DNA of 64,000 nt from Raja brachyura (lineage: Eukaryota): contig OY740792.1 of the NCBI GenBank assembly GCA_963514005.1, forward strand, positions 21,080,001 to 21,144,000. Reading direction: 5' to 3'. This document shows positions 1,830 to 61,956 of this stretch, piece after piece (position 1 is the stretch's first letter; each line of letters opens with the position of its first letter). Made by a program: the position numbers and the translations under genes. The notes beneath the pieces were generated by a model. It searched no databases, was not told the DNA's origin, and saw only the letters and a list, made by a program, of their open reading frames with translations.

Positions 1830-1973
1830 CTGAAAATTCTGCCTCTCCTATCTTAGCAGGTTCAAGTTCTGGGATTGGTTTGATCACACTGGGAATGTCT
1901 GTGGCTTGCCGTTCATAGCCAGATATTAAAGAGAACACTGTAGTTGTGTGAGAAGTTGACAATTCATGGTCTT
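1830..1973 (-). CDS. 144-nt phase-1 mucin-like repeat exon, unit 1 (EDHELSTSHTTTVFSLISGYERQATDIPSVIKPIPELEPAKIGEAEFS)
   Basis: Acceptor tttttatccgtag|AA, donor TCAG|gtagtc, open frame, 48 codons. Confidence 0.85.
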
Positions 1974-2442
1974 CTACGGATAAAAAGGAAGCCAAGTTAC
2001 AAAATTCTAAGCATCTTCTGAATGTACACCTGCACTAAGTAGTTCCCTATGAATACTAGCTAATTGAAAATAATCATTACTTAATTATTTAATGCAGTAA
2101 GGAACAAAGTCATCCAGCTCATTAGCATGATATGTGAACCAAACAGAGCGATCCCATCAGTCTCATACCGCCTCTTATTTCCTTGCAAGCCTCTCTCACA
2201 TTGTCGCCAACAATGACGAAGCAAGTTAAGGAAAGACAGCTAAGTGTACACTATGCTGTGTTTTGCATGCTCTTCCATGACTCACACATAGCCAATACAA
2301 ATATTCACATAAACACCTAGCATGCCATCTGTGGCACATGTCCAGAATTTTGTCCTTAATTGTGATAAACCTAAGCATGCACTTTTAATTATTTACTCCA
2401 TTGCTTATTTCAAACATGGAATACACATATTGTCAGAACTAC

Positions 2443-2586
2443 CTGTAACATCTGCCTCTCCTATCTTTGTAGGATCGGCTTCTGGGATTGGATTGATCAC
2501 ACTGGGAATGTCTGTGGCTTGCCGTTCATAACCAGATATTGAAGTGAACACTTTAGTCGTGTGTAAAGTTGATAATTCATGGTCTT
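2443..2586 (-). CDS. 144-nt phase-1 repeat exon, unit 2 (EDHELSTLHTTKVFTSISGYERQATDIPSVINPIPEADPTKIGEADVT)
   Basis: Acceptor ttttatccttag|AA, donor ACAG|gtagtt, open frame. Confidence 0.85.
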
Positions 2587-4401
2587 CTAAGGATAAAACG
2601 GAAGCCAAATTACAAAATTCTAAATATATTCTGAACATACACCTGTGCTGAGTAATTTCCTATGTATATTAGCATATTGAACACTATAATTATTTAATTA
2701 TTTAATACAGTATGCATCAAAATCATCCAGCTCATCTGAATGATACGAGAACCTAATAGAGCGATCCCATGAGTCCCATGTCCCCTCGTATTTCCTTGCA
2801 ACACTCACTCACATTGTTGCTAACAATGACGAAGCAAGTTAAGGAAAGACCATAAAGGCCCTTTCTCACGGTGCGAGTCATCCCACGAGTGACCCCAAGT
2901 GAAAGAAAAAAAAACAGACTCGTGGTTGTGTACGAGATCTCAAGTTTATGATCAAGTGTTTAACCGAGTTCCCACGGGTATATCAATGCTGCGATGTTCC
3001 AACTTACTCTCCCGAGTTAACAAGTTCCACTCCCGTTACTCTTGAGCCAACCGTGAATGAAGGTAAGTGTGTGAGGGGTGAGAAGTCCATGCCGGGTGCC
3101 GGCCGGCTGCAGCCGCTGTTCAGATTGTTGGGAGACGGAGCTCAGGGTTCGCCTCTTGAGCTGCTTTGGTGCCCAGGCGTAAGTTGAGGTGGAAGGTGGT
3201 TGGGGGTTGGTGGGAGGCTGACAGACAAGGCTCTTGGGTGCTGGGATCATTCTCTGTGGAATGGTCTTTGTGTGGGAGACATGTGTAGGAGAGGTGTGCT
3301 GACTGCAGGCAAACACTTTGGTAGTGATTGCCCACCAGTCTCAAAAGCCGCTGTGTCTCCCTCCACGTCCCCCTCCACGCCAACACAAAGGGCAACGATC
3401 CCACTTGTCAGCATTAAACTCCAGCCTCTTACCGACTTCATGTCGGCGACTATCCCAAGGCTTCAGACGGAAGGCAGACGCAACAAGCTGGAGTAACAAC
3501 GCGGGCCAGGTAACATCTCTGGAGAACGTGGGTAGGTGAAGGTGACGTTTCAGATAAGGGCTCATCTTCTGAAGAAGGATCTCGACCCACTGAATTACTC
3601 CAGCAGTGTTAAAGAAGGAACTGCAGATGCAGCAACATCGAGCGTACACAAAATTCTGAAGAAACTCAGCGGGTGCAGCAGCATCTATAGAGCGAAGGGA
3701 TGGGTGACAGAAGGGTCTCGACCTGCTGAAATTCTCCAGCATTTGGATCTAAACATCACCCATCCCTTCCCTTCAGAGATGCGGCCTGTCCCGCTGAGTT
3801 ACTCCAGCTTCTTTGTGTCCATCGTTGAATGGGTGACATTTCGGGTCGAGACCCTTCTTCGGACTGAAAATAAAACTTGCCTTGCGTGAAGCGGCTTGTA
3901 AATTAAAACATAAAAACAAGAAATGCTAAAGGTTGACTCATTTATGTGCTGCTATTCATTTACCTGGCCTGTTGCTGTCCTCCCTCGTCCACCGCGCTGG
4001 ATAAATCACCGGGTGCAAAACTCCGCTGCATCCTGGGCGGAGGGCGATGATCACCCGACTGACCGGCAAGTAGAGGCGGCGGGTCGGCCAAGCCCGGCTC
4101 CCCGCCACCGGGATAGACACCAACTACTGGAGTAAACTCAGCAGGGTCTCTGGAGAAGTCTGAAGTAGGGTCTCGACCTGAAATCTCACAAATCCCATCT
4201 CTCCAGAGATGCTGCCTGTCCCTCGGAGTTACTCCAGCATTGTGTGTGTCTATCTTCGGTGTAAACCAGCATCTGCAGTTCCTTCCCAATCCCACACTCT
4301 CGGCCCCGGGGGGTGGATGGAGCATCACACGTGGACACAACCCACTCACCGCCCCAGACTTGCCCCTCCGGTAGGTCTTTAACCGCGTCCTAAAGCCGTT
4401 C

Positions 4402-4592
4402 GTGTTAAAGAAGGAACTGCAGATGCTGGAGAATCGAGGGTTACACAAAAAGCTGGAGAAACTCAGCGGGTGCAGCAGCATGAAGAAGGTCAGCAGGTCT
4501 GAAGAAGGGTCTCGACCCGAAACGTCGCCTATCTCTTGCGCTCCTTAGATGCAGCTGCACCCGCTGAGTTTCTCCAGCTTTTTGTGTTATCC
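4402..4592 (+). mobile_element. Short Penelope-type (pLTR-derived) element with inverted arms and a hammerhead motif
   Basis: Same family as 43541..43766. Flanked by imperfect direct repeats taaagccgttc / tactgccgttc. Confidence 0.65.
4495..4530 (+). ncRNA. Minimal type I hammerhead ribozyme motif
   Basis: AGGU-CUGAAGA-A-GGGU(CUCG)ACCC-GAAA-CGUC-GCCU: conserved core, 4-bp stem II, palindromic ACGU stem III, GUC cleavage triplet and 4-bp stem I. Confidence 0.65.
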
Positions 4593-5363
4593 TACTGCCG
4601 TTCATTGAGACGAATACGAAGCCACGGGGCAGGTGCCTCAGTAATAAAGGACAAGTTGCAGATCATCGCAGAAAGGCCGAAGATAGACACAAAATGCTGG
4701 AGTGGGACAGGCCGCATCTCTGGAGAGAAGGAATGGGTGGCGTTTCGGGTAAGTCTGAAGAAGAGTCACGACTCCATTCCTTCTCTCCAGAGATGCTGCC
4801 TGGTCCGCTGAGTTTCTATCTTTGGGTCAGTCTTTACTCGAGCGAACGAACAGATTATAAGAAAGTTCCCACGGTAGACTTACGAGTCACTAAGGTAAAC
4901 GCACGGGCCACTACGTTACTACGAGTTTAAATGTTTCCATTTTTAACTTGAAGAGTTAATTTGACTCGTGGAAAAAATCAAACATGTTTGATTTTTTTCC
5001 ACGAGTTAACAAGCTTCCCGAGTACCTGCCGTTAGCGCCACGAGTCGATAAGTTGCTCGTGCGAGTTCCGACGTTCCCACGACGTGATCACCACGCGTGA
5101 AAACTCAGGGTCACTCGTGGGCCAACTCGCACCGTGAGACAGGGGTTTAAGTGCACAGTATGTTTGTGTTTTCCAGGCTCTTCCATGGGCTTACACACAA
5201 CCAATCCAAATATTCACATAAACGTTCATGTAAAAGCATAACATGGCATCTGTGGTACGTGTCCAGACTTTTTCCTTAATTGTGATAAATCTAAGAATGC
5301 ACTTTTTTATTATTTGCTCCATTGTTTACTTCAAACATAAAATACACAGATTGTTGGAACTAC

Positions 5364-5507
5364 CTGCAAATTCTGCCTGTCCTATCTTAGCAGGATCAGG
5401 TTCTGGGATTGGATTGATCACACTGGGAATGTCTGTGGCTTGCCGTTCGTAGCCAGATATTAAAGAGAACGCTGTAGTTGTGTGAGAAGTTGACAATTCA
5501 TGGTCTT
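5364..5507 (-). CDS. 144-nt phase-1 repeat exon, unit 3 (EDHELSTSHTTTAFSLISGYERQATDIPSVINPIPEPDPAKIGQAEFA)
   Basis: Acceptor ccttag|AA, donor GCAG|gtagtt, open frame. Confidence 0.85.
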
Positions 5508-5974
5508 CTAAGGATAAAATGGAAGCCAAGTTACACAATTCTAAACATCTTCTGAATGTGCACCTGCACCAAGTAGTTTCCTATGAATATTAGCACATTG
5601 TGAATAATCATCACTTAATTATTTAATACAGTAAGGAACAGTCATCCAGCTCATTAGAATTATATGAAAACCTAACAGAGCGATCCCATCAGTCTCATAC
5701 CGCCTCTTATTTCCTTGCAAGGCTCTCTCACATTGTCGCCAACAATGATGAAGCAAGTTAAGGAAAGACAGCTAAGTGTACAGTATGCTCTGTATTGCAT
5801 GCTCTTCCATGACTCACACATAGCCAATACAAATGTTAACATAAACGCCTAGCATGGCTTCTATGGCACCTGTCCAGAAATGTTTCCTTAATTATGATAA
5901 ACCTAACCATGCACTTCCATTTATTTTCTCCATTGCATATTTCAAACATAGAATACACATATTGTTAGAACTAC

Positions 5975-6118
5975 CTGTAAATTCTGCCTCTCCTATCTTA
6001 GCAGGATCGGTTTCTGGGATTGGATTAATCACACTGGGAATGTCTGTGGCTTGCCGTTCATAGGCAGATATAAAAGAGAACACTGTAGTTGTGTGCGAAG
6101 TTGACAATTCATGGTCTT
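5975..6118 (-). CDS. 144-nt phase-1 repeat exon, unit 4 (EDHELSTSHTTTVFSFISAYERQATDIPSVINPIPETDPAKIGEAEFT)
   Basis: Acceptor ccttag|AA, donor ACAG|gtagtt, open frame. Confidence 0.85.
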
Positions 6119-6323
6119 CTAAGGATAAAAAGTAAGCCAAATTACAAAATTCTAAACATCTTCTGAATGTACACCTGCACTAAGTTTCCTATGTATATTA
6201 GCACATTGTACATTATCATTACTTATTTATTTAATACAGTATGGAACAAAGTCATCCAACTCATTAGAAATATACGAGAACCTAACAGAGCAATCCCATC
6301 AGTCTCATACCACCTCATATTTC

Positions 6324-8101
6324 AATAGACAATAGACAATAGGTGCAGGAGTAGGCCATTCGGCTCTTTGAGGCACAACCGCCGTTCAATATGATCATGG
6401 CTGATTATCCACAATCAGTACCCCGCCTTCTCCCCATATCCCTTGGCTCCGCTATCTTTAAGAGCTGTATCTAACTCTCTTTTGAAAGCATCCAGAGAAC
6501 CTGCCTTCACCACCCTCAGGGAGGCACAGAATTCCACAGACTCACAACTCTCGGTGTGAAAAAGTATTTCCTCATCTCCATTCTAAATGGCTTACCACTT
6601 ACCACATGGTTTACCAGGAAAACATTCTTTACACAGAGAGTGGTGAGTCTCTGGAATTCTCTGCCACAGAAGGTAGTTGAGGCCAGTTCATTGGCTATAT
6701 TTAAGAGGGCGTTAGATGTGGCACTTGTGGCTAAAGGGATCAGGGGGTATGGAGAGAAGGCAGGTACGGGATACTGAGTTGGATGATCAGCCATGATCAC
6801 ATTGAATGGCGGTGCAGGCTCGAAGGGCCGAATGGCCTACTCCTGCACCTATTTTCTATGTTTCTATGTCTATGTTTAATCTTAAACTGTGGCCCCTGGT
6901 TCTGGACTCCCCCAACATCAGGAACATGTTTCCTGCCTCTAGTGTGTCCAAACCCTTAATAATCTTATATGTTTCAATAAGATCCCCTCTCATCCTTCTA
7001 AATTCCAGAGTATACAAGTCCAGCCGCTCCATTCTATCAACATAGGACAGTCCCGCCATCCCGGGAATTAACCTTGTGTACCTACGCTGCACTCCCTCAA
7101 TAGCAAGAATGTCCTTCCTCAAATTTGGAGACCAAAACTGCACACAGTACTCCAGGTGTAGTCTCACTAGGACCCTGGACCAGAAGGACCTCTTTGCTCA
7201 TATGCTCAACTCCTCTTGTTATGAAGGCCAACATGCCATTCGCTTTCTTCACTGCCCGCTGTGCCTGCATGTTTACTTTCAGTGACTGATGAACAAGGAC
7301 TCCCCAGATCCCGTTGTACTTCGCCTTTTTCCAACTTGTCACCAGTTAGATAATAATCTGCCTTCCTGTTTTTGCCACCGATGTGGATAACCTAACATTT
7401 ATCCACATTAAAATGCATCTGCCATGCAACCTGCCCACCCATCCAAACGGTCCAAGTCACCCTGCATCCTCATAGAATCCTCCACACATTTCACACTGCC
7501 ACCCAGCTTTGTGTCATCTGCAAATTTGCTAATGTTACTTTCAATGCCTTCATCTAAATCATTAATATATATTGTAAATAGCTGCGGTCCCAGCACGGAG
7601 CCTTGCGGTACCCCACTAGTCACTGCCTGCCATTCTGAAAGGGACCCATCAATCCCTACTCTGTTTCCTGCCTGCTAACCGATTTTCTATCCATGTCAGC
7701 ACACTACCCTTGTACCATGTGATCTAATTTTGCCCACTAATCTCCTATGTGGCACCTTATCAAATGCTTTCTGAAAGTCCAGGCACACCACATCCACTGG
7801 CTCTCCCCTGTCCATTTTCCCAGTTACATCCTCAAAAAATTCCAGAATATTAGTCAAGCATGATTTCCCCTTCATAAATCCATGCTGACTTGGACTGATC
7901 CTGCTACTGCAATCCAAATGTGCGGCTATTTCATCTTTTATAATTGACTCCAGCATCTTCCCCACCACAGACGACTGGCTAACTAGTCTATAATTCCCTG
8001 TTTTCTCTTTCCCTCCTTTCTTAAAAAGTGGGATAACATTAGCTACCCTCCAACCCACAGGAACTGATCCTGAATCTTTAGGATCCAATCCAAAGTACCT
8101 G
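6324..8101 (-). mobile_element. CR1 LINE (5'-truncated, frameshifted RT, 3' tail at left) inserted between units 4 and 5
   Basis: (caataga)n tail at 6323-6341. Minus ORFs give [31 protein letters not shown] and NYRLVSQSSVVGK. Array sequence resumes at ~8102. Confidence 0.9.
6610..6874 (+). mobile_element. Younger CR1 3' end nested in opposite orientation in the previous CR1
   Basis: FFTQRVVSLWNSLPQKVVEA...GY*, a 3' UTR and a ctatgtttctatgtctatg tail on plus. The host CR1 continues on both sides. Confidence 0.8.
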
Positions 8102-8377
8102 TTCCTTGCAACACTCTCTCACATTGTCGCCAACAACAAAGAAGCAAATTAAGGAAGGATATCTGTGTGTCGAGTATGTTTGTGTTTTCCAGGCTCTTCC
8201 ATATCTTACACACAACCAATACAAATATTCACATAAATATTCATGTAAAAGCATACCTGGCATCTGCGGCACATGTCCAGACTTTTTTCCTTAATTGTGA
8301 TAAACCTAAGCATGCACTTTTAATCATTTGCTCCATTGCTTACTTCAAACATAAAATACACAGATTGTTAGAACTAC

Positions 8378-8521
8378 CTGTAACATCTGTCTCTCCATTG
8401 TTAGTAGGATCGGGTTCTGGGATTGGATTGATCACACTGGGAATGTCTGTGGCTTGCCGTTCATAGCCAGATATTAAATTGAACACTTTAGTTGTGTGAG
8501 AAGTTGATAATTCATGGTCTT
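8378..8521 (-). CDS. 144-nt phase-1 repeat exon, unit 5 (EDHELSTSHTTKVFNLISGYERQATDIPSVINPIPEPDPTNNGETDVT)
   Basis: AG/GT intact, open frame. Confidence 0.85.
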
Positions 8522-8997
8522 CTAAGGATAAAAAGGAAGCCAGATTACAAATTCTAAATATCTTAAGAACATACACCTGCGCCAAGTAGTTTCCTATGTA
8601 TATTAGCACATTGAACACTACCATTACATAATTAATTAATACAGTATGGAACAAAATCATCCAGCACATTTGAATGATACAAGAAACTAATAGAGCGATC
8701 CCTTCAGTCCCATACCCCTCTTATTTCCTTGCAACACTCACTCACATTGTCGCCAACAATGACAAAGCAAGTTAAGGAAAGACCATAAGTGCAGTTTGTT
8801 TGTGTTTTCCAGGCTCTTCCAAGACTTACACGCAACCAATACAAATATTGACATAAATATTCATGTAAAAGCATAACATGGCATCTGTGGCACGTGTCCA
8901 GACTTTTTCCCTTAATTTTGATAAACATAAGCATGCACTTTTGATTATTTGCTCCATGCTTACTTCAAACATAAAATACACAGATTGTTAGAACTAC

Positions 8998-9141
8998 CTG
9001 TAACATCTGTCTCGACTATCTTAGTAGGATCGGATTCGGGGATTGGATTGATCACATTGGGAATGTCTGTGGCTTGCCGTTCATAGCCAGATATTAAAGT
9101 GAACAGTTTAGTTGTGCGAGAAGTTGATAATTCATCGTCTT
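8998..9141 (-). CDS. 144-nt phase-1 repeat exon, unit 6 (EDDELSTSRTTKLFTLISGYERQATDIPNVINPIPESDPTKIVETDVT)
   Basis: AG/GT intact, open frame. Confidence 0.85.
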
Positions 9142-9570
9142 CTAAGGATAAAAAGGAAGCCATATTACAAAATTCTAAATATCTTGTAAACGTACACCTG
9201 ATGCTTAGTAGTTTCCTATGTACATTAGCACACTGAACACTACCATGACTTAATTATTTAATACAGTACAGAACAAAGTCATTCCGCCCATTGGAATTGT
9301 ATGGTAACCTAACAGAGCAATCCCATCAGTCTCATACCGCCTCTTATTTCCTGGCAACGCTCTCTCACATTGTCGCCAACATGCTGTGTTTTGTATGTTC
9401 TTCCTTGCCTTACACATAACCAAAACAAATATTCACATAAACGCCTAGCATGGCATCTGTGGCACCTGTCCAGACAATTTTCCTTAATTATGATAAACCT
9501 AACCATGCACTTCCAATTATTTACTCCATTGCTTATTTCAAAAGTAGAATACACATATTGTTAAAACTAC

Positions 9571-9714
9571 CTGTAAATTCTGCCTCTCCTATCTTAGTAG
9601 AATCAGTTTCTGGGATTGGATTAGTCACACTGGGAATGTCTGTGGCTTGCCGTTCATAGCCAGATATTAAATTGAACACTTTAGTTGTGTGAGAAGTTGA
9701 CAGTTCATGGTCTT
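9571..9714 (-). CDS. 144-nt phase-1 repeat exon, unit 7 (EDHELSTSHTTKVFNLISGYERQATDIPSVTNPIPETDSTKIGEAEFT)
   Basis: AG/GT intact, open frame. Confidence 0.85.
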
Positions 9715-10196
9715 CTAAGGATAAAAAGTATGCCAAATCACAAAATTCTAAATATCTTCCAAACGTACACCTGACACTGAGTAGTTTCCTATGCATATTA
9801 GCACATTGAACACTACCATTAGTTAATTATTTATATAGTATGGAACAACGTCCTCCAGCTCCTGGGAATTATATGAGAACCTAATAGAGCGATTCCATCA
9901 GTCCCATACCGCCTGCTTTTTCCTTGCAACAATCACGCACATTTTTGCCAACAATGATGCAGCAAGTTAAGGATAGACATCTAAGGGTACAGTATGTTTC
10001 AGTTTTCCTGGCTCTTCCATGCCTTACACACAACCAACACAAATATTTACATAAATATTAATGTAAAAGCATAACATGGCATCTGTGGCACGTGTCCAGA
10101 TTTCTTTCCTTAATTGTGATAAACCTAAGCATGCACTTTTAATTTTTTACTCTATTGTTTACTTCAAACATAGAATACACATATTGTTAGGACTAC

Positions 10197-10340
10197 CTGT
10201 AAATTCTGCCTCTCTTATCTTAGCAGGATCAGGTTCTGGGATTGGATTGATCACACTGGGAATGTCTGTGGCTTGCTGCTCATGGCCAGATACTAAAGTG
10301 AACACTGTAGTTGTGTGAGAAGTTGACAGGTCATGGTCTT
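10197..10340 (-). CDS. 144-nt phase-1 repeat exon, unit 8 (EDHDLSTSHTTTVFTLVSGHEQQATDIPSVINPIPEPDPAKIREAEFT)
   Basis: Acceptor ccatag|AA, donor ACAG|gtagtc, open frame. Confidence 0.85.
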
Positions 10341-10769
10341 CTATGGATAAAAAGGAAGCCAAGTTACAAAATTCTAAATATCTTTTAAACGTACACCTGA
10401 CGTTTAGTAGTTTCCTATGTACATTAGTATATTGAACACTACCATTACTTAATTATTTAATACAGTACAGAACAAAGTCATCCCGCCCATTGGAATTATT
10501 TGGGAACCTAACAGAGCAATCCCATCAGTCTCATACCGCCTCTTATTTCCTGGCAACGCTCTCTCACATTGTCGCCAACATGCTGTGTTTTGTATGTTCT
10601 TCCTTGCCTTACACATAACCAAAAGAAATATTCACATAAACGCCTAGCATGGCATCTGTGGCACCTGTCCAGACAATTTTCCTTAATTATGATAAACCTA
10701 ACCATGCACTTCCAATTATTTACTCCATTACTTATTTCAAAAATAGAATACACATATTGTTAAAACTAC

Positions 10770-10913
10770 CTGTAAATTCTGCCTCTCCTATCTTAGTAGA
10801 ATCGGTTTCTGGGATTGGATTAGTCACACTGGGAATGTCTGTGGCTTGCCATTCATAGCCAGATATTAAATTGAACACTGTAGTTGTGTGAGAAGTTGAC
10901 AGTTCATGGTCTT
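10770..10913 (-). CDS. 144-nt phase-1 repeat exon, unit 9 (EDHELSTSHTTTVFNLISGYEWQATDIPSVTNPIPETDSTKIGEAEFT)
   Basis: AG/GT intact, open frame. Confidence 0.85.
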
Positions 10914-12293: not shown

Positions 12294-12437
12294 CTGTGAC
12301 TTCACTAAATCTTATTTTAGTTGGTTCAAATTTTATGGCTGGGTTCAACACATGTGGAGGAGAGTCAGATACTGGCTGCTTATGACCTGGCAGTAAGGTG
12401 ACCACATTAGGAGTTTTTGAAGATGATACTGTATGGT
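12294..12437 (-). CDS. Diverged 144-nt phase-1 exon (DHTVSSSKTPNVVTLLPGHKQPVSDSPPHVLNPAIKFEPTKIRFSEVT)
   Basis: Acceptor tttatttcctcag|AC, donor ACAG|gtactt. Homologous to the young unit. Confidence 0.8.
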
Positions 12438-13069: not shown

Positions 13070-13207
13070 CTGTAACTTCAGTAACTCGTATTTTAGTTGG
13101 TACAGATTCAGGGATCGAAGTGAACACAGGAGTGTCAATGATTTGTGGTTTAGACCCTGAACTTGTTCTGAACATGTTAGGAGTGTCAGCGGTTGGCTCC
13201 ATGTAGC
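13070..13207 (-). CDS. 138-nt phase-1 exon (GYMEPTADTPNMFRTSSGSKPQIIDTPVFTSIPESVPTKIRVTEVT)
   Basis: Acceptor tcttattccccag|GC, donor ACAG|gtactt, open frame (not the frame shown in the ORF track). Confidence 0.8.
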
Positions 13208-14212: not shown

Positions 14213-15344
14213 TTCTTGCCTATCCATATGCTGATTCAAAAGTCTCTTTAATGCCACTATCATATTCGTCTCAAGCACTACCCCCCCGGCTTTGTATTCC
14301 ACCCTCTGCGTAAAAACCTGCCCCGCACATCTCCTTTAAACTTTGCCCCTCTCACCTGAAAGGCTAGATCCTCTAGTATTTGATTTTTCCATCCTATCTA
14401 TGCCGTTCATAATTTTAAGCTGCATCATAACCTCCGGACTCTTACACTCAATGCCCCGACATATGACAGCAAGCATATCATATGCCTTCTTTATCACTTG
14501 GAATCATCTTGCAGGATGCTTGATTGAAAGCTGAAAGAGGGGTGTGGAGGTGTGGATGTTGGCTGTTTGGAGAAGTCAATGGTTGACTGCGGTCTGGGAG
14601 AAGTGTCTCAAGGGATAAAAAATGGACAGGCAGAGACAGGAATATTGTAACAGAGCAGGGAGAGGGGTAGCGGGTTGCTGCAGGGATGTGTCCAGAGTTA
14701 ATTGAGTTGTAGAGAGTGTAGGAATCTGATTGGGGTACATGGATAGGATGGTATTTGAACGCCCCTTCGGGGTCTTGGGAGTGCAGGATTGAAAGTCCAA
14801 TTAAGTCATGGCTGTGTTGGTATTCAGTGGTGAGTTGAAGCGGCTATGAGGCAATGGTGTGGCATTAGCTAAAGGTCATCATTTGGTTAAGGAGTAGGGG
14901 CTGGGGGTCTGTTGGTTGAGTGAGATGGGTGGGTTGGCAGAGCATGATGAGAGCTAGTAGCTAACTAAATTAATATTCCCCTGCTCAAATTGGGCTCCTA
15001 GTGTTGGGAAGGTCTCATTTAAGAGAGCTTTCTTTAAATCAAGCTATTAAAGAAATAGCAGAATTGTAAAAATCTGGTTGTTCCTAGTGTGTCCAAGGGT
15101 AGGCACATGTTTGTATTAGCTCGTGCCGGTCAAATCTTTAAAGGGGCATTGCACCAGAATGATAATGGAAATAGCATCAAATCACTAGTGGAAATGGCTG
15201 GTCATATTTGTCCCTGAAATGGTCACAAGTGTGTTGCAATCCAGACACAATCAATTTTCATGCAACTGAATTTCTAAGCTGAAGTTTAAACTTTTAATTT
15301 AGCACAAATGCGAACAAACAACATACAAACGTGGTCAATAATAC

Positions 15345-15482
15345 TTGTAACATCAGCATCTCTTGTTATAGCTTTTACAGATTTGGGGTTTGGATTGAAC
15401 ACATATGGAGAGTCAAAGACCAAGAAGTTATGCCCTAACCATAATGGTTTCCATTGAACCATTGATAGTAATATATGTCCGT
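15345..15482 (-). pseudogene. Probable dead copy of the repeat exon (acceptor AG replaced by AA)
   Basis: Open 138-nt frame ending DSPYVFNPNPKSVKAITRDADVT with donor ACAA|gtatta. The pyrimidine tract ends ttctatAA rather than AG. Confidence 0.55.
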
Positions 15483-15957: not shown

Positions 15958-16098
15958 CTGCAACATCAACAACTGGCCTGTAAGCTCGTTCTGATGCTGG
16001 AATTCTATTGAATAAATTAGGTGGCTTGGTGGGTTTTAGTTTACAGCTAGAGAGCAATTTGAAGAAATGAGTAGTATTAGAGGGTGGCATTGTATAGA
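15958..16098 (-). CDS. 141-nt phase-1 exon (VYTMPPSNTTHFFKLLSSCKLKPTKPPNLFNRIPASERAYRPVVDVA)
   Basis: Acceptor ttatcccttcag|TC, donor GCAG|gtattt, open frame. Confidence 0.7.
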
Positions 16099-16740: not shown

Positions 16741-16857
16741 CTGTAACTTCAGGACGTTCAGATTGTGCGATTGGATTGAACATGCAAGGGTTTGGCAGCT
16801 TAGAGCCTGATATTACAGTAATCGATTTAGGAGTGTGAAAGGTTGACATGGCATGGT
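16741..16857 (-). CDS. 117-nt phase-1 exon (DHAMSTFHTPKSITVISGSKLPNPCMFNPIAQSERPEVT)
   Basis: Acceptor ttattcccctcag|AC, donor ACAG|gtactt. Confidence 0.78.
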
Positions 16858-17437: not shown

Positions 17438-17661
17438 ATGTGACCTCTATAAATCTGAAGAAGGGTCTCGACCCGAAACGTTGCCTATTTCCTTCGCTCC
17501 ATAGGTGCTGCCTCACCCGCTGAGTTTCTCCAGCATTCTTATCTACCTTCTATAAATTGAAAGGTAGTTGGCTCAGTTGCTGGAACATCTTGGCCATATT
17601 GGGAGTGTCAGTGGTTTGTTGTTTAGAACATGAGATTAATAGGAGTATCAATGATTGGTTT
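17438..17661 (-). pseudogene. Dead repeat exon interrupted by a Penelope-type insertion
   Basis: Flanks match the family (aaatattgtcaaag..., ggaataagaaagaatccagatactaaattcttaa). In-frame stops, degraded donor, insertion at 17455-17548. Confidence 0.6.
17455..17548 (+). mobile_element. Short Penelope-type insertion starting at a hammerhead core
   Basis: ctgaagaagggtctcgacccgaaacgtt...; 9-bp TSD tctataaat (17446-54 / 17549-57). Confidence 0.7.
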
Positions 17662-17961
17662 CTTAAGGAATAAGAAAGAATCCAGATACTAAATTCTTAA
17701 TCTTTCATTAAATTACAACAAACAAGCAGTTCACATAGCATCATTGTTGCTATCTAACAATATAGCCATAATTGGTTAACAGAGCCAGGCACACATTGAG
17801 CTCTATGAAAAAACAGCATTTACCAACTAACTCCATCAAGGATAAGCAAAATCTTATATCTCAGAAGATATGCAGTGAATTGTTCATTTCATAGAATTGT
17901 GCCTTTACATAATTAAACCACACAATATTTTCAACTGAGACACAAACATTCTCACATGTAC

Positions 17962-18102
17962 CTGTAGGTTCGATATCACTTATCGTAACAGATTCTGGTT
18001 CTGGGATTGGATAGATCACATTAGGGGTGTCAGTAACTGGAATTTCATGGTCTGCCATTAAAGTGGACACATTATTTATGTCAAACATTGGCACCTCATA
18101 GT
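17962..18102 (-). CDS. 141-nt phase-1 exon (DYEVPMFDINNVSTLMADHEIPVTDTPNVIYPIPEPESVTISDIEPT)
   Basis: Acceptor ttatcccctcag|AC, donor ACAG|gtacat, open frame. Confidence 0.8.
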
Positions 18103-19820: not shown

Positions 19821-21179
19821 TTGAAGTCAGTTTCACAGAGTCATAAAGTGATACAGTGTGGGAATCAAGCCTTTCGGTCCAACTTGCCCATAGCAGCCAG
19901 CATGTCCCAGCTATACTAGTCCCACCTGCCAGCATTTGGTCCATATCCTTCCAAACCTGTCCTATCCATGTTTCTGGGTAAGAGCAAGTAGAATGTTGCT
20001 TGGAGAACTGTGAGATCAGGGAAAATGAACTCTGAGCTGTATCAATACCGATATTTGCCTAACTCGGCTTCATTGGAAAATAGCACTGTTTTGGAATTGA
20101 TCTTATTCTCTGATTTCAAAATTGGAACAATTCCCAAGTTAGAACTACTGTATTTAGTCATGTCATAAAATCATGAACAATGCTTAGTCATTATGGTAAT
20201 TAATTAAATATTATTTAAAATAACCAGTACAAAAGCAATATGAAAACAAATGGAAAACCAAACAATGTCAAATATTTTTCATTCAAGCCATAACTGGCTG
20301 TTAGACATTTTAGACCCAAGCACAGTCACCAAGCTTCATGAAGTGAATTGTTTGATCACAGAATTCAACGCACAACACACAATAAGTGCTGAAATATGAT
20401 GAATAATGCAGCAAATTGCTATTTTCCCCCCAAAATTATTTTGTACAGTGACAAATGAGAATCATGCAAGACAGTGAAGTGCCAACAAATATGCATTATG
20501 AAAAGTACAATGAACATTAAATCAACTAAGAAGGTGCAGCATAGCATCTATGTGGCATACTATTTGATACCATGCAAACCTGAACAAATCCTGTTAATTA
20601 TTTAGTACATTCCTGAGTATATACCAGGAATGGAACTCCCATATTATTTTCAAATATTGTGATTGAACTGAACACATTAGGAATGCCAAAGTTTGGTCCC
20701 TCATAGTCTGCAGCTGACAATAAGGAAGCCAAATAAAAAGTCTTAAATTGTCAGGAAGATAAATGTTCCACTGTGCATCATTATAACGTAACCAGATTGT
20801 ATCATTGGTCTTATTCTTTCACCATAAAAACATTCAATATACAGTATTCAGATGTGCACCATGTGGTCTCTTACAATATTAAATTATACACAACATTTCA
20901 CTCATTAATTCAAATTCTTCAAAATAATTCATGCTGGCAATAATTTTTTCACTACAGAAAAACTAATTAAGACCCAATAAACTTCACAATGTAGCCTCGA
21001 AGAAATGACAACCAATTTACAGCCAAACAGCCATTAATGAAATGTTGACCAAATATTCCAACAAAAAAATGCTCCATCATCCAAAATTTCCACTAAAATG
21101 TTAGCAGTTCTGAGTGGAACTGCAGAACCAGGGAATTCAGAACTACTGTACATGCTTGCATGCATGTAGAAATCCAGAT

Positions 21180-22398: not shown

Positions 22399-22515
22399 CT
22401 GTTGGTTCAGTATCTGTGCTCTGTGTGATTGGATTGAACACCTGTGAAGAGTCGGAGGCCACCAACTCATTGTCTGACATTAAAGTGAACACTTTAGAAG
22501 TGTCAAAGGATGGCA
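22399..22515 (-). CDS. 117-nt phase-1 exon (VPSFDTSKVFTLMSDNELVASDSSQVFNPITQSTDTEPT)
   Basis: Acceptor ttcttttcctcttag|TG, donor ACAG|gtactt. Confidence 0.8.
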
Positions 22516-24067: not shown

Positions 24068-24142
24068 CTGTGGATTCGTTCTCTTCAGGGTTATCAACAT
24101 CATACACAGTAACCGGAGTGTCAGAATCTAGTTGTGCATAAT
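24068..24142 (-). CDS. 75-nt phase-1 exon (DYAQLDSDTPVTVYDVDNPEENEST)
   Basis: Acceptor tttttgttatctag|AT, donor ACAG|gtattc, open frame. Confidence 0.7.
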
Positions 24143-28594: not shown

Positions 28595-28678
28595 CTGCAA
28601 ATGGCTGTTGAACTTTCTTGTCTGCATCAGTAATTGGATTTGAAGTGATGAGGGCTTTACTCGTGGTGAATGATGATT
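28595..28678 (-). CDS. 84-nt phase-1 exon (ESSFTTSKALITSNPITDADKKVQQPFA)
   Basis: Acceptor T-run...catgctag|AA, donor GCAG|gtaatt, open frame. Confidence 0.68.
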
Positions 28679-31897: not shown

Positions 31898-31984
31898 CTG
31901 TGGATTGTTTTGGTTCCACTGCATCATCTTTAGATGATTCTAAAGAGTTGACAGGCGAACTGCTCAAGAATGGTTTCCCAAATT
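31898..31984 (-). CDS. 87-nt phase-1 exon (EFGKPFLSSSPVNSLESSKDDAVEPKQST)
   Basis: Acceptor gttccag|AA, donor ACAG|gtattc, open frame. Confidence 0.7.
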
Positions 31985-32463
31985 CTGGAACTTATTCAGA
32001 GAATACAAATAAAGCATTTATTTTACCAACTGGACTGTTTTGCATGGTATCAAATAAGATGTGAAAATGTATAGCATACCTTATTCAAAACCACATAAAT
32101 ATATGCAGAGCAGTGGCCAAGCATGATGGAATACATTGATCAAGCTAAGCAGTACTCTGGAGTAATCTGATACATTTAAATTACACCTCCATGCAAATTG
32201 TTCACTTAATAATGTGATTCATGCAAATGGTCATTGATACATTGATACCTGACTGAAGCTAGATTCTAAAGCTAAAATATATAGGTTTGCTTACCAAACT
32301 AATCCTAATGTATTGCACTGCGTGATTGCATATTGGCTTATTGATGCATTTTGCCACTTTCCATCTTTCAAGAGCAAGAAAGCACATAGATAATGTGTCT
32401 GCATTCCAGTGGTGAACAGGACAATGAAGTGTGCATCCATGCCATAGCTTATCTACATACTAC

Positions 32464-32553
32464 CTGAAATCTGCTCCCGTTGTGGAGGATCAAATTCATA
32501 AATTGTATTTGAGGTGGTGAAAAATGAATTGGCGGTGGGTTCAACCACACGTT
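32464..32553 (-). CDS. 90-nt phase-1 exon (ERVVEPTANSFFTTSNTIYEFDPPQREQIS)
   Basis: Acceptor attgcag|AA, donor TCAG|gtagta, open frame. Confidence 0.7.
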
Positions 32554-34677: not shown

Positions 34678-34767
34678 CTGTGAATTGTTTATTATTCATA
34701 TTATCAGGTGCTGAGGTTGTGGGTGAATAGATGTAAAATGCATCACTGGAGGATGGTTCCTCATACT
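34678..34767 (-). pseudogene. Repeat exon with a defective acceptor or homopolymer frameshift (YEEPSSSDAFYIYSPTTSAPDNMNNKQFT)
   Basis: Family donor TTCACAG|gtagtt and family-like peptide, but the in-phase acceptor position reads cccAA. Confidence 0.5.
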
Positions 34768-35421: not shown

Positions 35422-35505
35422 CTGTGAACCACTCTGTGTGCACGGCCTCAGGGTTGGAAACCGTATCTGAACTGGACGAAAATGAACTAGTACTGGATGG
35501 AAGCT
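35422..35505 (-). CDS. 84-nt phase-1 exon (ELPSSTSSFSSSSDTVSNPEAVHTEWFT)
   Basis: Acceptor attacag|AG, donor ACAG|gtagat. Confidence 0.75.
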
Positions 35506-35944: not shown

Positions 35945-36025
35945 CTGTGAATATCTCCGTGTCCATAGTAACTGATTCAGGAACTGGATTGAGAGAGGAG
36001 GTGCTGGAGTATCGTATTTTAGGCT
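35945..36025 (-). CDS. 81-nt phase-1 exon (EPKIRYSSTSSLNPVPESVTMDTEIFT)
   Basis: Acceptor tttctctgaaatgcattacag|AG, donor ACAG|gtagtt. Confidence 0.75.
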
Positions 36026-39243: not shown

Positions 39244-39397
39244 TAAGTAACTGAGAAAAACAACATTCTCTCATTGAAAACTATTATGTTTACAAATGCA
39301 GACGTAGATGTCAAAAATGATGCTGTTTAAAGGTGAAATATAATGCATGCATTATATTGTAAAAGACATCCTGATTTTTTATGCATCACTGAACTAC

Positions 39398-39478
39398 CTG
39401 TGAATTTTTGTGTATCCATGTCATCAGGTTCAGATGTTGGATCGAAATGTTTACTGCTTGTAGGTGGCATCTCAGGTT
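39398..39478 (-). CDS. 81-nt phase-1 exon (EPEMPPTSSKHFDPTSEPDDMDTQKFT)
   Basis: Acceptor ttttctctgaaataaattacag|AA, donor ACAG|gtagtt. Confidence 0.78.
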
Positions 39479-41457: not shown

Positions 41458-41547
41458 CTGTGAACTGCTTCGTTTCCATGGAATCTAATGCAGATGGAGT
41501 GTCTGGAGGGTTTAAAAATGAATTGCTGGAGGATGGCAACTCAATTT
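41458..41547 (-). CDS. 90-nt phase-1 exon (EIELPSSSNSFLNPPDTPSALDSMETKQFT)
   Basis: Acceptor tcatccag|AA, donor ACAG|gtagtt. Confidence 0.78.
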
Positions 41548-44270: not shown

Positions 44271-44360
44271 CTGGAAGATCCCGATTGCCCACATCAGTAT
44301 GGTCTGAAGTTGTTCTTAATATATTGAATGGCATTTTAGTAGAAGATGGCGTCTCAGGTT
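44271..44360 (-). CDS. 90-nt phase-1 exon (EPETPSSTKMPFNILRTTSDHTDVGNRDLP)
   Basis: Acceptor gcgttgcag|AA, donor CCAG|gtagct. Confidence 0.75.
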
Positions 44361-45265: not shown

Positions 45266-45334
45266 CTGTGAATTCATCCATGGTATCATGTTCAGAAGTT
45301 GTGCTTGGAGTGAGGAAAACTGGTAACTGAATTT
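45266..45334 (-). CDS. 69-nt phase-1 exon (EIQLPVFLTPSTTSEHDTMDEFT)
   Basis: Acceptor aattacag|AA, donor ACAG|gtagtc. Confidence 0.75.
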
Positions 45335-46565: not shown

Positions 46566-46634
46566 CTGTTCTGTCAGAATGAAGCATAGGTTTTGATGGG
46601 AAGGATGGAGTGGCTGAGGATGACAGCTTGGATT
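46566..46634 (-). CDS. 69-nt phase-1 exon (ESKLSSSATPSFPSKPMLHSDRT)
   Basis: Acceptor ttttgaattacag|AA, strong donor ACAG|gtaagc. Confidence 0.75.
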
Positions 46635-48631: not shown

Positions 48632-48724
48632 CTTTAGTTGTCAAGGGCTTCATTGCTGGTTTGTCATTTTCTTTTCTTGTTTTGCTCCTTTTCAGTGCTG
48701 GTTTAGAGACAGTGTTTGTAGTCT
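48632..48724 (-). CDS. 93-nt phase-1 Lys-rich exon (ETTNTVSKPALKRSKTRKENDKPAMKPLTTK)
   Basis: Acceptor cttatgtgtgcag|AG, donor AAAG|gtaatg, open frame. Confidence 0.65.
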
Positions 48725-51139
48725 CTGCACACATAAGATGATACATTATAAAACCAAGCTAATTTATAAACCCTAACTCAAGTTTCTTTAGAGTTACTAT
48801 AACATCCTTTATCAGCAAATGACATGAAATCACACAGTTTCATAAAAGTTGTTATTATGATAAAGTCATTAGGTTCCAGTTCTATGGGCTAACTTAATTT
48901 GCGAATTGTATTTGTTCTAAGATCTGAAATAAAAGAACAGCAATGTTTTAATTATCAATATAACTATTAATTATTTTATCATTCGTGTTACTACCCCTTT
49001 CTTAATTTAGAATTACATTTTCTTTCCTCCAGCAGTGGTATTCATGAAGGTGAGAGATGAACTGCAGAATGGAACATTTCTACTTTGCACATCATGACAA
49101 CATTAAGTGCTTCCTGACAATTTATTTATAGTGTTGGTCAGATGAAATGCTAATCTTTTCCTTGGCAATGTGGCTAACTCCCAGTCTCAGAACTACACTT
49201 TTCCTTTGCCAAGGAGTATATATTTTTTCCACTTCTGAAACTGACTATACTCATTAGCTTTGTGAAGATGTCAGATTAATGGAAAATTCAATTCTAAGTT
49301 ATCTCAGAAGAGATGCTTATAGGAAATTTGGACATTCTTCCACTGATAGCATTTAGTCCATTTATAATAATTAATATAACATCAAATGGGATACATGGCC
49401 AAATTCACAAGAATTGTTCCTGGCAAACAAGAGTCATAAATTTACTGCTTAAATATCTGGTTTGGCTGTTAGTTCTAGAGGCAAGTATACAGCATTACCA
49501 CCTCTTAATCTTTTATTCATCCTACCTTCTTTTATGCCTTCCTTGTCACGCAACCGATCACGAGTGTGCTCTGTGTCAAATAGAACAAAAGCAATGATTA
49601 GTATGCATTCATCTTTGAAAGATACTAAAAAAAGAAATCAGAATTAATTATTGATCCTATTATTTTGGAGAGGCAGGGAGAGGCAAGAAAGTAGCAGCAA
49701 TAGGGAATCCAGAAAAGGTGGATCATATATAAATGTCCAAGCATTTTTTTCCCTCCACAACAAAAATGTATCTGTTCCTAGTCAGCTGTCATTCAACGCG
49801 ACAACTTGTCTTGCTGTTGTCTGGGAAAACCTATGGTAGTAGGTCACAGACAGAAGACAAAGAGGATACAGGGAGACATTATAGTTGCAAGGTCAACAGT
49901 GAGACCAGATGAGAGATACTGCATCTTTGATAAGACCAGGGATGCAAGATACTACGGTTGAAGTCATGGTCTGAAAGGAAACTGGGAGCCATTAGATCAC
50001 AGTGTGAAGTTGCAGGGGAACAGTTGATGGTCGGCCAGTTGTTTCGATTGTGGGGACAAAAGCTGTGTTATAAGACTGCAGTATGATACTGACATATATC
50101 CTGTTATGAGCAGCAGAGAAACAGTTGATGCTGGGGCAATGAAAAGTAAGTTATGCTTTGGGGAAATTATTTTAGTGGTGGAGTAACAAGGCACTTGTGC
50201 CCCTGCTGGTTCACAATCAGTGCAAGAAAAGCATTCATTTGTCTTCCCTTCTGCTTCTGTCTAGCCTGAAACTTGATCCATGCAAATAAATGTTAAGTTG
50301 GGAAAATGTGAAGAGAATTATCAATCAAGAGAATCATGAGTGTTTATTTATCTCTGCATTGGATATGAACTGGAACAATGAGTCTTACTTGCTGCAACAA
50401 CCACAACAACAGTAAGTAAACAATAAATTGTCCGTTATTCTAAGTAAACCAAGCCAAAACCAAAGTAGCTAGAGCAACCATAGTATTTCAAAGTCTATAG
50501 TGGTTCGGTGCTGAGGTAAGGGTTGTGGCTAGCGATGTGTTGGATGGTTAAAGAACCTCATGGTTGATGGTATGAAATTATTCTTGAATCTGGAGGGAAT
50601 TCTTAGATTCCTGTATCTTCATCTTGATGATAGCAGTGCTAAAAGAACATGGCTTAAGTGGTGTGGGTCGCTGATGATATTAGCTTCCTTCTTCAGGCAG
50701 CACATCTTATAGATGTCAATGTCAATGTCAATGTCAATGGTGGAAATATGAGGCACATGCCCTTATTAAAATGTTAAAATTACATATCTGTTTCCGGCAA
50801 ATGGCTGATTTTTCCACCCACCAACTTATTATAAGGACAAATGACTATGATGGAGATGAATTTCTGTGGATTTCTGATTTTTGCTATTGTAACCATCATT
50901 CTGTCCCCTGCATTCCTGCTCATTGATTGGGAGTTAAACTGATTAATCTAAAATGGAACACCTTTCCAATAATTAATGCAGACACTAAAATGTTGGATCC
51001 CATTAAGGTAAAGCAGCAGGTTCATATTTTTCCGGAATACTTTCCTCGTTTAATTTGTCTGGAAGAATCAGTTGGTAAGTCAATATTCTTTCAGTATTTC
51101 CTTTATTTCTTCCCATAAGATAGAGTTTGCATCATGGTT

Positions 51140-52492: not shown

Positions 52493-52573
52493 CTGGTTTA
52501 CTTGTAATAACAGGTTTTGGTGATGAACTTTTCCCAGGATGGACATCTGCACTGTTTGAAGCTGACTGGCCAC
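52493..52573 (-). CDS. 81-nt phase-1 exon (GGQSASNSADVHPGKSSSPKPVITSKP)
   Basis: Acceptor attgtttcag|GT, donor CCAG|gtacag, open frame. Confidence 0.68.
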
Positions 52574-53559: not shown

Positions 53560-54336
53560 TGCTGAGGTTGACATTGATGTTCTGTAGTGGTACACATACC
53601 CCGGCATGCATTGATGGCACTAAAGTAGAGATGGTTGTAAGTTTCAAATTGCTAGTAGTAAATATCAGCAGCATCTTGTGCTGGACCACCCATATCAAAG
53701 CAATGGGCAAGAAAGTACACCAACACCTCTACTTCCTGAGAATGTTTAGGAATGTTTGGCATGTCCCAACAACTCTCATCAACTTCTACTGATGCACTGT
53801 AGAAAGCATTTTATCGGGATGCATCACAGCTAGGTTTGGGAACAACTCCATGCAAAACCCGCACAAAAATGCAGAGAATTGTAGTCGCAGTCCAGACCAT
53901 CACACAAACTAACCTCCCATCCATTCATTCCATTTACTCTTCACACTGCCTCGGTAAGGCCATCAGCATAATCAAGGATGAACTCACCCCGGTCACTGCC
54001 TCTTCTTCCCTCACCCATCAAGCCAGAGGTATAGAAGTGGGAAAATGGACGCCTCCAGATTCAGAGACGGTTCCTTCCCAGCTGCTATCAGGTAACTGAA
54101 CCATTCTATCAACAACCAGAGAGCAGGTCCGTGCTACTATCTACCACATTGGAGACCCTCAACCATCTTTAATCTGACTTTACTGGACTTTATCATGCAC
54201 TAAACTTTATACCCTTTATCATGTGTCTGTATTGGCTCGATTGTAATCATGTGTTGTCTTTCCGCTGACTGGTTAGCACGCAACATACGCTTTTCACTGT
54301 ATCTCAATACATGTGACAATAAACTAAACTAAACTC
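53560..54336 (+). mobile_element. Rex1/Babar-clade LINE 3' fragment
   Basis: GTKVEMVVSFKLL...KKVHQHLYFLR...LINFY*CTVESILSGCITA remnants; aataaactaaactaaact tail. Confidence 0.8.
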
Positions 54337-55232
54337 ACTATGCCGTCTGCTATATAAATAAAATATGTCTGTATAATAAAAATAATAAATAAAATATAAA
54401 TAAAATGTGTCTCTGTTTTTCAACCTCTACACAACCTAGCAATTTTAGCACTTATCTAGATGCAAGGACATTTTAATGGAATATGAACAGTGAATCCAGC
54501 CTGCTATAATAATGGAGCATGGGCAGGATATCCTTCTTAATATCATGGTTGGTACAATGGTGGTAATAGATATGGAGTAACAAAACAGAAGTGAGACATA
54601 TCAATGATAATTTCATGACTCATCTATCAATTTAAAAAGTGAGGTTTATTTCCATTTGATTAGAATACATAAAACATAACAATCTTGTTCTTGAAGCGCC
54701 AGAGAAAATCACTGCATTAAAATCCCATTTGTAATTACGTCCAAGTAAATCATTATTTATTTATACCTTTTTTTATGGAAGATATTAGTCAGCAGAGGAA
54801 ATTAAACCATGAATTGGAAGAACAATGTTATTTTATGAACTAAGATATAGTACTTAATGCAAACTGAAAACTGATAGATAATTTGTAAAGTACAAGTTTG
54901 TAAAAGTTAAAAAAATCACAACTACAAATCTTCCAGTAAATATAGAAAATGTGGTATTCATGACAATGTTGTCGCATTTTCAACTTCCCCTTTAAAAAGT
55001 TGAATATTGTATGCGTTACATACATCTGTGAAGACTCAATGATATAAAGGGCCTATTAGGTATGTAATTCTCAACATGAACTTCTGAATTATTTACCTGA
55101 ATATTAATAATGAAATTAATAATTACAATACCTAAATATTCAGCCCATGAGTGCAGAGAATAAACTCACCTAATACCTGTATGACAATATACAAAGAATA
55201 CAAGGAGATTGATATTTTGAATTATTACGTAC

Positions 55233-55301
55233 CTATGACTGCTTTTGTAATAAGATCAGGCTTTTCGGGTAAATGTAGTGTCCAGTTTGTTCTGTTGTTT
55301 A
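55233..55301 (-). CDS. 69-nt phase-1 exon (VNNRTNWTLHLPEKPDLITKAVI), two N-glycosylation sequons
   Basis: Acceptor ttcattccatttctag|TA, donor ATAG|gtacgt, open frame. Confidence 0.6.
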
Positions 55302-55757
55302 CTAGAAATGGAATGAAATTTCTCAGAAATACATCACAACTTCATATAAATATATTAAAGTACAGATTAGCAGTGCATAGCTTGTGGCTTAGTCACTAGC
55401 TTTGGAGGTTATCAATATAAGCGTGTAACAATTGGAGAACCAATACAAAGAAAACCACATTTGTTCCCGCTGCTACTGATATTTTTCTCTTTGCAGTACC
55501 TGTTGTATATGTCTATGGCTTGATTGTACTCATGTATGGTAGGATTTGACTGGATATCTCAGTACATTTGACCATAATAAGCTAATACCAGTAAGAAACG
55601 AGAGATTAAACAATTTTGTTTTACTATCAAAAATATTTATATTTATGGTGACATGGTGCACCGCAGTATATTAAATTGGAATGCAATTGATTATCAGAAC
55701 TTAAAACACAAATATTAATCTGAGGAATATTTTTTCCCCCAGAGTAGAAAGACTTAC

Positions 55758-55820
55758 CTGAACTAGATGCACCCAATCCCTTTACTTTTTTCAATCCTTT
55801 ATTATTATGATTATTTATTT
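55758..55820 (-). CDS. 63-nt phase-1 exon (EINNHNNKGLKKVKGLGASSS); 70 nt with phase-0 entry if the acceptor at 55827 is used
   Basis: Consensus donor TCAG|gtaagt. Acceptor region tttctttcag|ctaacag|AA; both options give the same reading frame. Confidence 0.6.
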
Positions 55821-61950: not shown

Positions 61951-61956
61951 GAGTAA

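Follow-up and report, generated by a model that had tools for sequence, protein, structure and literature searches.

The array of small exons in the window, which is the 64,000-nucleotide stretch of Raja brachyura DNA analysed here, belongs to the skate gene for ABI3BP (TARSH). The middle of this gene consists of 52 frame-neutral exons that very probably encode a long, acidic spacer rich in S/T/P, with a length that is likely varied by exon skipping. Thirty of these exons, all delimited as AG..G/GT, lie within the window on the minus strand between positions 1830 and 55301. They are multiples of 3, in phase 1 at both ends and free of stops, just as a preliminary description had proposed. Their lengths of 45-144 nt add up to 3,288 nt, or 1,096 codons. 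Together with the next exon upstream they encode 1,119 aa with 51% S/T/P/E/D and two Cys, in agreement with the earlier figure of about 1,100 aa. The length range first given (63-144 nt) holds at its upper end; at the lower end, the shortest exon has 45 nt (49526-49570). A presumed symmetric exon of 63 nt from 55820 is more likely a 70-nt exon from 55827 running from phase 0 to phase 1, because the upstream donor GGG/gtaggt is in phase 0 and RKPG/LTEI is the sequence in the Leucoraja model. The bounds 1830..55820 were too narrow, since 22 further symmetric exons lie past the left edge, and in the exon-like stretch ending at 34678 the in-frame acceptor has been lost. Over 264 kb, one mechanical filter picked out 46 minus-strand candidates but just 4 plus-strand ones, which shows that the array is not a product of chance. 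The features of the gene, in window coordinates, are as follows.

149166-149244 (window-relative, beyond the right edge), minus: exon 1 with the ATG
99812 to 72125 (beyond the right edge), minus: exons 2-6, N-terminal domain, first FN3 and start of the spacer
55828..64000, minus: part of intron 6
55758..55827, minus: exon 7, asymmetric, from phase 0 to phase 1, 70 nt
55233..55301, minus: exon 8, 69 nt, first symmetric phase-1 exon
52493..52573, minus: exon 9, 81 nt
49526..49570, minus: exon 10, 45 nt
48632..48724, minus: exon 11, 93 nt
46566..46634, minus: exon 12, 69 nt
45266..45334, minus: exon 13, 69 nt
44271..44360, minus: exon 14, 90 nt
41458..41547, minus: exon 15, 90 nt
39398..39478, minus: exon 16, 81 nt
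35945..36025, minus: exon 17, 81 nt, singly skipped in Hemitrygon, Cetorhinus and Rhinoraja models
35422..35505, minus: exon 18, 84 nt
34678..34767, minus: decaying exon, in-frame acceptor AG lost, donor and frame intact
32464..32553, minus: exon 19, 90 nt
31898..31990, minus: exon 20, 93 nt, or 87 nt from a second in-frame acceptor
28595..28678, minus: exon 21, 84 nt
24068..24142, minus: exon 22, 75 nt
22399..22515, minus: exon 23, 117 nt
20658..20762, minus: decayed long-type exon copy, 5' part only
17962..18102, minus: exon 24, 141 nt
17544..17718, minus: decayed long-type exon copy
16741..16857, minus: exon 25, 117 nt, one Cys
15958..16098, minus: exon 26, 141 nt, one Cys, intact
15314..15444, minus: decayed long-type exon copy, 3' part, donor A/gt
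13070..13207, minus: exon 27, 138 nt
12294..12437, minus: exon 28, 144 nt
1830..10913, minus: exons 29-37, nine of the 15 young 144-nt copies
10770-10913, 10197-10340, 9571-9714, 8998-9141, 8378-8521, minus: exons 29-33
5975-6118, 5364-5507, 2443-2586, 1830-1973, minus: exons 34-37
1..1829, minus: part of intron 37
-557 to -58932 (beyond the left edge), minus: exons 38-59, six more young copies and 16 further symmetric exons
-66744 to -96161 (beyond the left edge), minus: exons 60-66, second FN3, TARSH_C and stop

Joining all 66 exons affords a protein of 2,460 aa with no stop and with AG/GT at every intron; since homologues guided the placement of the exon borders, the open frame is in part a consequence of how the model was built. 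The proposal of one gene with one exon per repeat and frame-neutral skipping is borne out. Extension of both flanks, as had been recommended, led to a signal-peptide-like start (judged from hydropathy) and an FN3 domain upstream, and to an FN3 domain and TARSH_C downstream. The TARSH_C match (PF21731, E 6.5e-11) lies downstream of the window and is above cut-off in exons 64-66. The FN3 assignment rests on Pfam analysis of the Leucoraja orthologue, which contains 2 fn3 stretches, and on the 89-100% identity of the matching Raja exons to this protein. The top database matches are shark and ray proteins named 'target of Nesh-SH3' (95-98%), the homologous pieces follow one another in order along 245 kb of the minus strand, from the ATG to the stop, and the end domains are 93-98% identical to those of three skate orthologues.

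TARSH_C is borne by both ABI3BP and its paralogue FNDC1, and one Heterodontus orthologue model is labelled 'FNDC1-like'. Nevertheless, it is very improbable that the gene is FNDC1. The Raja genome contains two TARSH_C loci; the one with the array matches Hemitrygon abi3bpa at 90-98% and Chinchilla TARSH at 70-77%, whereas the other (C8) reaches 62% and 55-62%, respectively. ABI3BP has TFG and IMPG2 as conserved neighbours. Searches for the corresponding PB1 and SEA families gave 3 and 5 matches, none of them on contig C12 or near the locus, although split exons are easily missed by such searches. A search for tRNA genes found none.

Only composition and phase-1 symmetry favour a membrane-glycoprotein stalk, for which CD44, PTPRC, CD46, EMCN and adhesion GPCRs had been the candidates at the outset. 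The CD44 variant exons, the A/B/C exons of PTPRC/CD45 and the STP exons of CD46/CD55 are indeed frame-neutral and vary the length of a glycosylated segment. In contrast to these membrane-anchored stalks, which comprise few exons and are followed by a transmembrane segment or a GPI signal, the Raja array is an internal spacer of 52 exons, without a membrane anchor and followed by FN3 and TARSH_C. The likeness to the CD44/CD45/CD46 type implies no homology. ABI3BP domains flank the array on both sides in the same frame, and array peptides of Raja sit inside the ABI3BP models of other skates. Hydrophobic 19-mers above 1.6 start only at residues 1-6 of the 2,460-aa protein, and the maximum past residue 30 is 1.08; by this measure the joined protein contains no transmembrane segment. 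These observations leave the membrane stalk with next to no probability, and we consider it ruled out.

Public gene models of three other skates, Leucoraja erinacea (XP_055500955.1), Amblyraja radiata (XP_032888575.1) and Rhinoraja longicauda (XP_078265648.1), agree with Raja in their domains, the order of exon-sized blocks, the amplified 48-aa unit and the occurrence of isoforms that lack whole blocks. At a threshold of at least 80%, 63 of the 66 exons match 21 skate RefSeq models (29 of 30 within the window). In the relatives, annotation has not missed these exons, and the existence of a known orthologue with the same exon set refutes novelty in the sense of the preliminary description. The ABI3BP proteins of Hemitrygon (abi3bpa), Mobula, Stegostoma, Hemiscyllium and Cetorhinus contain an acidic S/T/P spacer as in Raja. 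Raja exons 8-21 map one-to-one on Hemitrygon X1 and the skipped blocks share borders, but Hemitrygon contains the 48-aa unit once and has repeated other units instead. Mammalian ABI3BP/TARSH (human 1,786-aa ENST00000471714; Chinchilla X1) likewise resides in the extracellular matrix and combines two FN3 domains with a long disordered middle that is subject to differential splicing. In a comparison that took in 7 of 10 proteins, the Chinchilla middle is proline-rich and basic (P 19%, K+R 14%, D+E 8.5%), whereas that of the skate is acidic (P 9.8%, K+R 7.9%, D+E 15.8%). The repeat units measure about 25 aa in the mammal and up to 48 aa in Raja. Human ABI3BP has about 68 exons.

The relationship between the exons is visible in part of the array. 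Half of the window exons (15 of 30) have the donor ACAG/gtagt or ACAG/gtact, and 12 end exactly in (E/Q)FT or (E/D)VT, so both shared features are present as first described, but not in 'most' exons. Descent from one ancestral exon, also proposed at the outset, is detectable for 22 window exons (z of at least 8 against shuffles; 24 at z of at least 4), whereas the same comparison detects none for the five exons nearest the 5' end. That all array exons go back to one ancestor is unproven, since 10 of 38 non-redundant exons are unlinked at z of at least 8. Pfam found no family in the repeat. A 47-aa repeat query found nothing among proteins of up to 2,000 aa; the repeat-bearing skate proteins have 2,046-2,349 aa.

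One 144-nt exon has been amplified to 15 copies in Raja, as a unit of ~610 bp that comprises exon and intron; units 37 and 40, if both are real, are 99% identical. The longest models examined contain 16 copies in Leucoraja, at least 13 in Amblyraja and 11 in Rhinoraja. Within the same array we found eight decayed exon copies, and this combination of amplification and decay points to exon birth and death. The exon at 34678..34767 is broken in Raja, present in Rhinoraja and stingray models, and absent from the Leucoraja and Amblyraja models examined. Exons 26 and 46 are missing from the Leucoraja, Amblyraja and Rhinoraja models and indeed from all 21 skate models (best identity 32% and 44%), and a look-alike of exon 26 occurs in a Narcine model. 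Use of exon 26 by Raja is uncertain, and both exons may be dying.

The young block could also be mostly neutral debris of tandem duplication that is rarely spliced in, with a short form as the usual protein. A pN/pS of 0.80, the eight decayed copies and the variable copy number among skates are consistent with this idea, as are the Pristis models examined, which lead from exon 12 or 14 straight to exon 53 and so skip exons 13/15-52 outright. Yet all 15 young copies have kept 144 nt, AG/GT and an open frame, with 0 indels in 144 exon columns versus 11 in 308 intron columns, and 11-16 intact copies are retained in the longest models of three other skates. We therefore judge the debris explanation unlikely. 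The young units are low-complexity and ~80% alike as protein, and their sequence is weakly constrained. We surmise that unequal crossing-over may add or remove units without frameshift, because every unit is in phase 1 at both ends, and that copies losing a splice site would simply decay. Each lineage could therefore build its own array, with frame and composition under constraint but exact sequence little so.

That the spacer of Raja ABI3BP is likely varied in length by in-frame exon skipping is suggested by orthologue gene models, which are themselves predictions; to this extent the proposal of length tuning finds support. In Hemitrygon, 16 of 19 isoforms deviate from the longest one in a single contiguous block, and 3 deviate in two blocks. 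Both ends of 14 of the 17 distinct deleted blocks fall on projected exon starts, compared to 0.1 expected by chance (maximum 3 in 2,000 draws); the remaining 3 fit at just a single end, and the placement of one among the 14 can slide over 23 positions. In skate models the loss comprises one or two 48-aa units, and in Chinchilla models the missing blocks range from 12 to 769 aa. In human osteoarthritic cartilage, a cassette coding for the disordered part of ABI3BP is differentially included (PMC9239745), and this disordered region is partly lost during osteoblast differentiation (PMC13518942). PMC11166397 does not treat splicing.

The exons might instead be chosen independently or mutually exclusively, with each combination having its own binding properties; a combinatorial repertoire had been envisaged in the preliminary description. 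Any subset of exons keeps the frame, RefSeq isoform numbers run up to X23 in Hemitrygon, X30 in Amblyraja and X50 in Geotrypetes, and human ABI3BP is reported to contain a cluster of 10 mutually exclusive exons, lost in mouse and rat (PMC5740500). The models, however, show loss of single exons or contiguous blocks. The longest of them carry all units in series (16 in Leucoraja), which argues against mutual exclusion, and the units are much alike and weakly constrained in sequence. Such a combinatorial repertoire is quite improbable. Under the preferred reading of a spacer of variable length, skate ABI3BP would be secreted into the matrix like its mammalian homologue, for which matrix localisation and integrin beta-1 binding have been reported. 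The putatively disordered and O-glycosylated spacer would connect two FN3-bearing ends, and cells may skip its exons singly or in contiguous blocks. The resulting short and long forms could set the distance between the folded ends.

It is conceivable, but distinctly doubtful, that skates amplified the one spacer exon with a Ser-Gly site to make a proteoglycan-like matrix protein of ABI3BP, in which skipping and copy number would set the number of glycan chains, in a gene where exon bursts would have occurred separately in skates, stingrays, sharks and coelacanth. Among the 15 young units 14 contain Ser-Gly, but no more than about one acidic residue lies within five positions of it, and skate spacers contain 21-22 Ser-Gly compared to 6-8 in stingray and basking shark. 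Glycosaminoglycan-site motifs alone are unreliable (PMC8418075), and the main text of two chondroitin-sulfate glycoproteome papers, including this one, does not name ABI3BP.

As a discovery the array carries little weight. Public models of close relatives, three of them skates with the same array, already cover gene, array and skipping alike, and splicing of the region has been published for human. In the open-access literature we found no paper on exon birth and death in ABI3BP of sharks or rays and none naming both abi3bp and skate; on tandem exon duplication in ABI3BP, only the paper on mutually exclusive exons was found (PMC5740500). The gene does illustrate cleanly how exons arise and die within a frame-neutral array: 15 copies are young, eight have decayed, and the units that were amplified differ between lineages. 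It also exposes an annotation trap, as the Leucoraja orthologue XP_055500955.1 is labelled 'mucin-2'. We reject MUC2 and other gel-forming mucins, which have Cys-rich VWD/CysD domains and place their repeats in a single large exon: the only Pfam families in the Leucoraja protein are of the FN3 type and TARSH_C, and the Raja gene has one exon per repeat and two Cys in 1,977 aa.

The region analysed comprised the window (C12:21,080,001-21,144,000 of the 2.70-Gb genome) and 100 kb on either side, in total 264 kb; coordinates beyond 1-64,000 are window-relative. A filter for exons with AG..AG|GT[AG] ends, a length of 3n, an open phase-1 frame, and S/T/P/E/D-rich content returned 46 candidates on the minus strand versus 4 on the plus strand. 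Every donor was then compared with all upstream AGs and with homologues, which left 30 symmetric exons (45-144 nt, 1,096 codons) in the window. The array of about 30 mucin-like exons reported in the preliminary description is genuine, and the counts and lengths given there were close to these values. Its most upstream exon also exists, but with better boundaries at 55758-55827 (70 nt, phase 0 to 1); a Leucoraja model confirms the upstream junction. The donor ACAG|gtagt/gtact, thought to be common to most exons, is present in only half of them (15 of 30). The intron after exon 16 contains a purine-rich tandem repeat (22 bp, 18 copies, 38588-39006).

The gene that contains this array is ABI3BP. 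A TARSH-like stretch was recognised among 90 long ORFs downstream of the array, and Pfam identified TARSH_C in one of seven submitted ORFs (E 6.5e-11). A protein search found 5,181 relatives, headed by "target of Nesh-SH3" proteins of sharks and rays with 95-98% identity. Between 149,244 and -96,158, pieces of 28 chondrichthyan proteins align collinearly with the minus strand. Joining 66 exons, with borders chosen under homologue guidance, affords a protein of 2,460 aa with zero internal stops and AG/GT at all introns. Exons 8-59 constitute the array: 52 exons, 1,912 aa, phase 1/1 throughout.

End-domain identity between this gene and models from other species
Leucoraja, 96/98%
Rhinoraja, 95/95%
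Amblyraja, 93/94%
Pristis, 90/93%
Chinchilla, 43/62%

These values mark the gene as that of a skate. Only one other locus in the genome carries TARSH_C (C8:26,503,884-26,517,942), and we presume that it is FNDC1. Identity to Hemitrygon abi3bpa is 90-98% for the present locus versus 62% for the C8 locus. The idea that the array forms a membrane stalk had to be abandoned: the gene encodes no membrane anchor, and strong hydrophobicity is confined to the N-terminus of the protein. ABI3BP would instead be secreted into the matrix. It is described as a protein of the extracellular matrix whose function is little understood (PMC6426741).

The array is a genuine but known architecture of a known gene, previously modelled in three skates. 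Of the 66 exons, 63 are each matched at ≥80% identity by at least one of 21 skate RefSeq models, which cover part of each species' isoforms (15 from a 23-member Rhinoraja cluster, three from Leucoraja, and three from Amblyraja); the best matches to exons 7, 26, and 46 reach 74%, 32%, and 44%. In the window, 29 of the 30 symmetric exons are matched at this level; the concern that annotation might miss them does not hold for these relatives. The Leucoraja orthologue (XP_055500955.1 / XP_055500958.1) is labelled "mucin-2", although the only families that Pfam detects in this protein are TARSH_C and those of FN3 type; the Heterodontus orthologue (XP_067897073.1) is labelled "FNDC1-like". Domains and sequence identity point to ABI3BP in both cases.

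Common descent was examined with shuffles that preserve the splice consensus. At z ≥ 8, 28 of 38 non-redundant array exons fall into a single group. With 14 further young copies, this group covers 42 of the 52 array exons. The suggested origin from one ancestral exon is supported for 22 of the 30 window exons; exons 8-12 show no link to any other array exon in this test.

Exons 29-43 are 15 copies of one 144-nt exon, duplicated in tandem together with their introns. Spacing is 573-631 bp for 11 of 14 intervals and 2.4-2.9 kb for the other three, with these insertions of ~2 kb in the block:

6119-8377, ORF resembling LINE reverse transcriptase, judged by eye
2587-5363
-556 to 1829, LINE-reverse-transcriptase-like ORF, by eye

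The last lies a short way upstream of an otherwise intact acceptor. On average, the copies share 90% identity in their exons, against 83-86% in the flanking introns; pN/pS is 0.80. In 14 units (unit 38 was excluded because of an insertion near its acceptor), we counted 11 distinct indels per 308 intron columns versus 0 per 144 exon columns, where a rough estimate predicts ~5. The young exons therefore keep frame and length while their sequence drifts. Units 37 (1830-1973) and 40 (-1924 to -1781) have the same exon sequence and, with introns counted, 99% identity overall; the pair reflects a duplication of very recent date, gene conversion, or an error in the assembly.

The number of young units differs between lineages. 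In the longest models compared, Leucoraja has 16 such units, Amblyraja at least 13 (its models were all late-numbered isoforms), Rhinoraja 11, and Hemitrygon one, with other units repeated instead in the last species. A 25-aa unit forms a separate run in Latimeria. Copies have also decayed: profile searches of the array located eight degenerate exons. Four are in the window; the other four lie to its left:

near -7.8 kb
near -13.4 kb
near -13.9 kb
near -15.3 kb

The decayed copy at 34.7 kb is still present in 14 of 15 Rhinoraja models and in none of six Leucoraja and Amblyraja models. Unequal crossing-over may have generated the array copies. The ABI3BP model of the frog Ascaphus truei, from a cluster of 42 isoforms, reaches skate-like length (2,493 aa) and suggests a further, independent expansion.

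The spacer is probably disordered and O-glycosylated. In the skate, the spacer has an acidic composition (D+E 15.8%, K+R 7.9%), in contrast to that of Chinchilla, which is basic and rich in proline. Of the 15 young units, 14 contain Ser-Gly, which the Hemitrygon counterpart lacks. These motifs are candidate glycosaminoglycan sites, a weak hint because no acidic cluster lies close to them. Chondroitin-sulfate attachment motifs are treated in two studies (PMC10424144, PMC8418075), the main texts of which do not name ABI3BP.

Predicted RefSeq isoforms, which rest on RNA-seq junctions, suggest that spacer length may be set by skipping of single exons or blocks. Relative to the longest Hemitrygon isoform (X1), 19 predicted isoforms (15 of a 17-member cluster, minus the reference, plus five others) lack 17 distinct blocks of 17 to 378 aa. 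Both ends of 14 blocks coincide with exon starts projected from the Raja brachyura genome (one of them free to slide inside a repeat), as compared to a chance mean of 0.1 and maximum of 3 in 2,000 random draws; the other three coincide at a single end. In Pristis models, exon 12 or 14 is followed directly by exon 53, and some Rhinoraja and Leucoraja models lack one or two 48-aa units. Among the isoforms listed for Chinchilla, Latimeria, and Geotrypetes the pattern is alike, with blocks of ~25 aa and multiples. For human ABI3BP, the longest isoform of which (1,786 aa) contains two FN3 domains, higher inclusion of a cassette for the disordered part is described in high-grade osteoarthritic cartilage (PMC9239745). 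A cluster of 10 mutually exclusive ABI3BP exons is listed as lost in the mouse-rat ancestor (PMC5740500). The acceptors of the 144-nt units (1830-10913) read tagAAG, with tandem AGs 3 nt apart. In three Rhinoraja models, a 48-aa unit starts exactly one residue late, consistent with splicing at the second AG.
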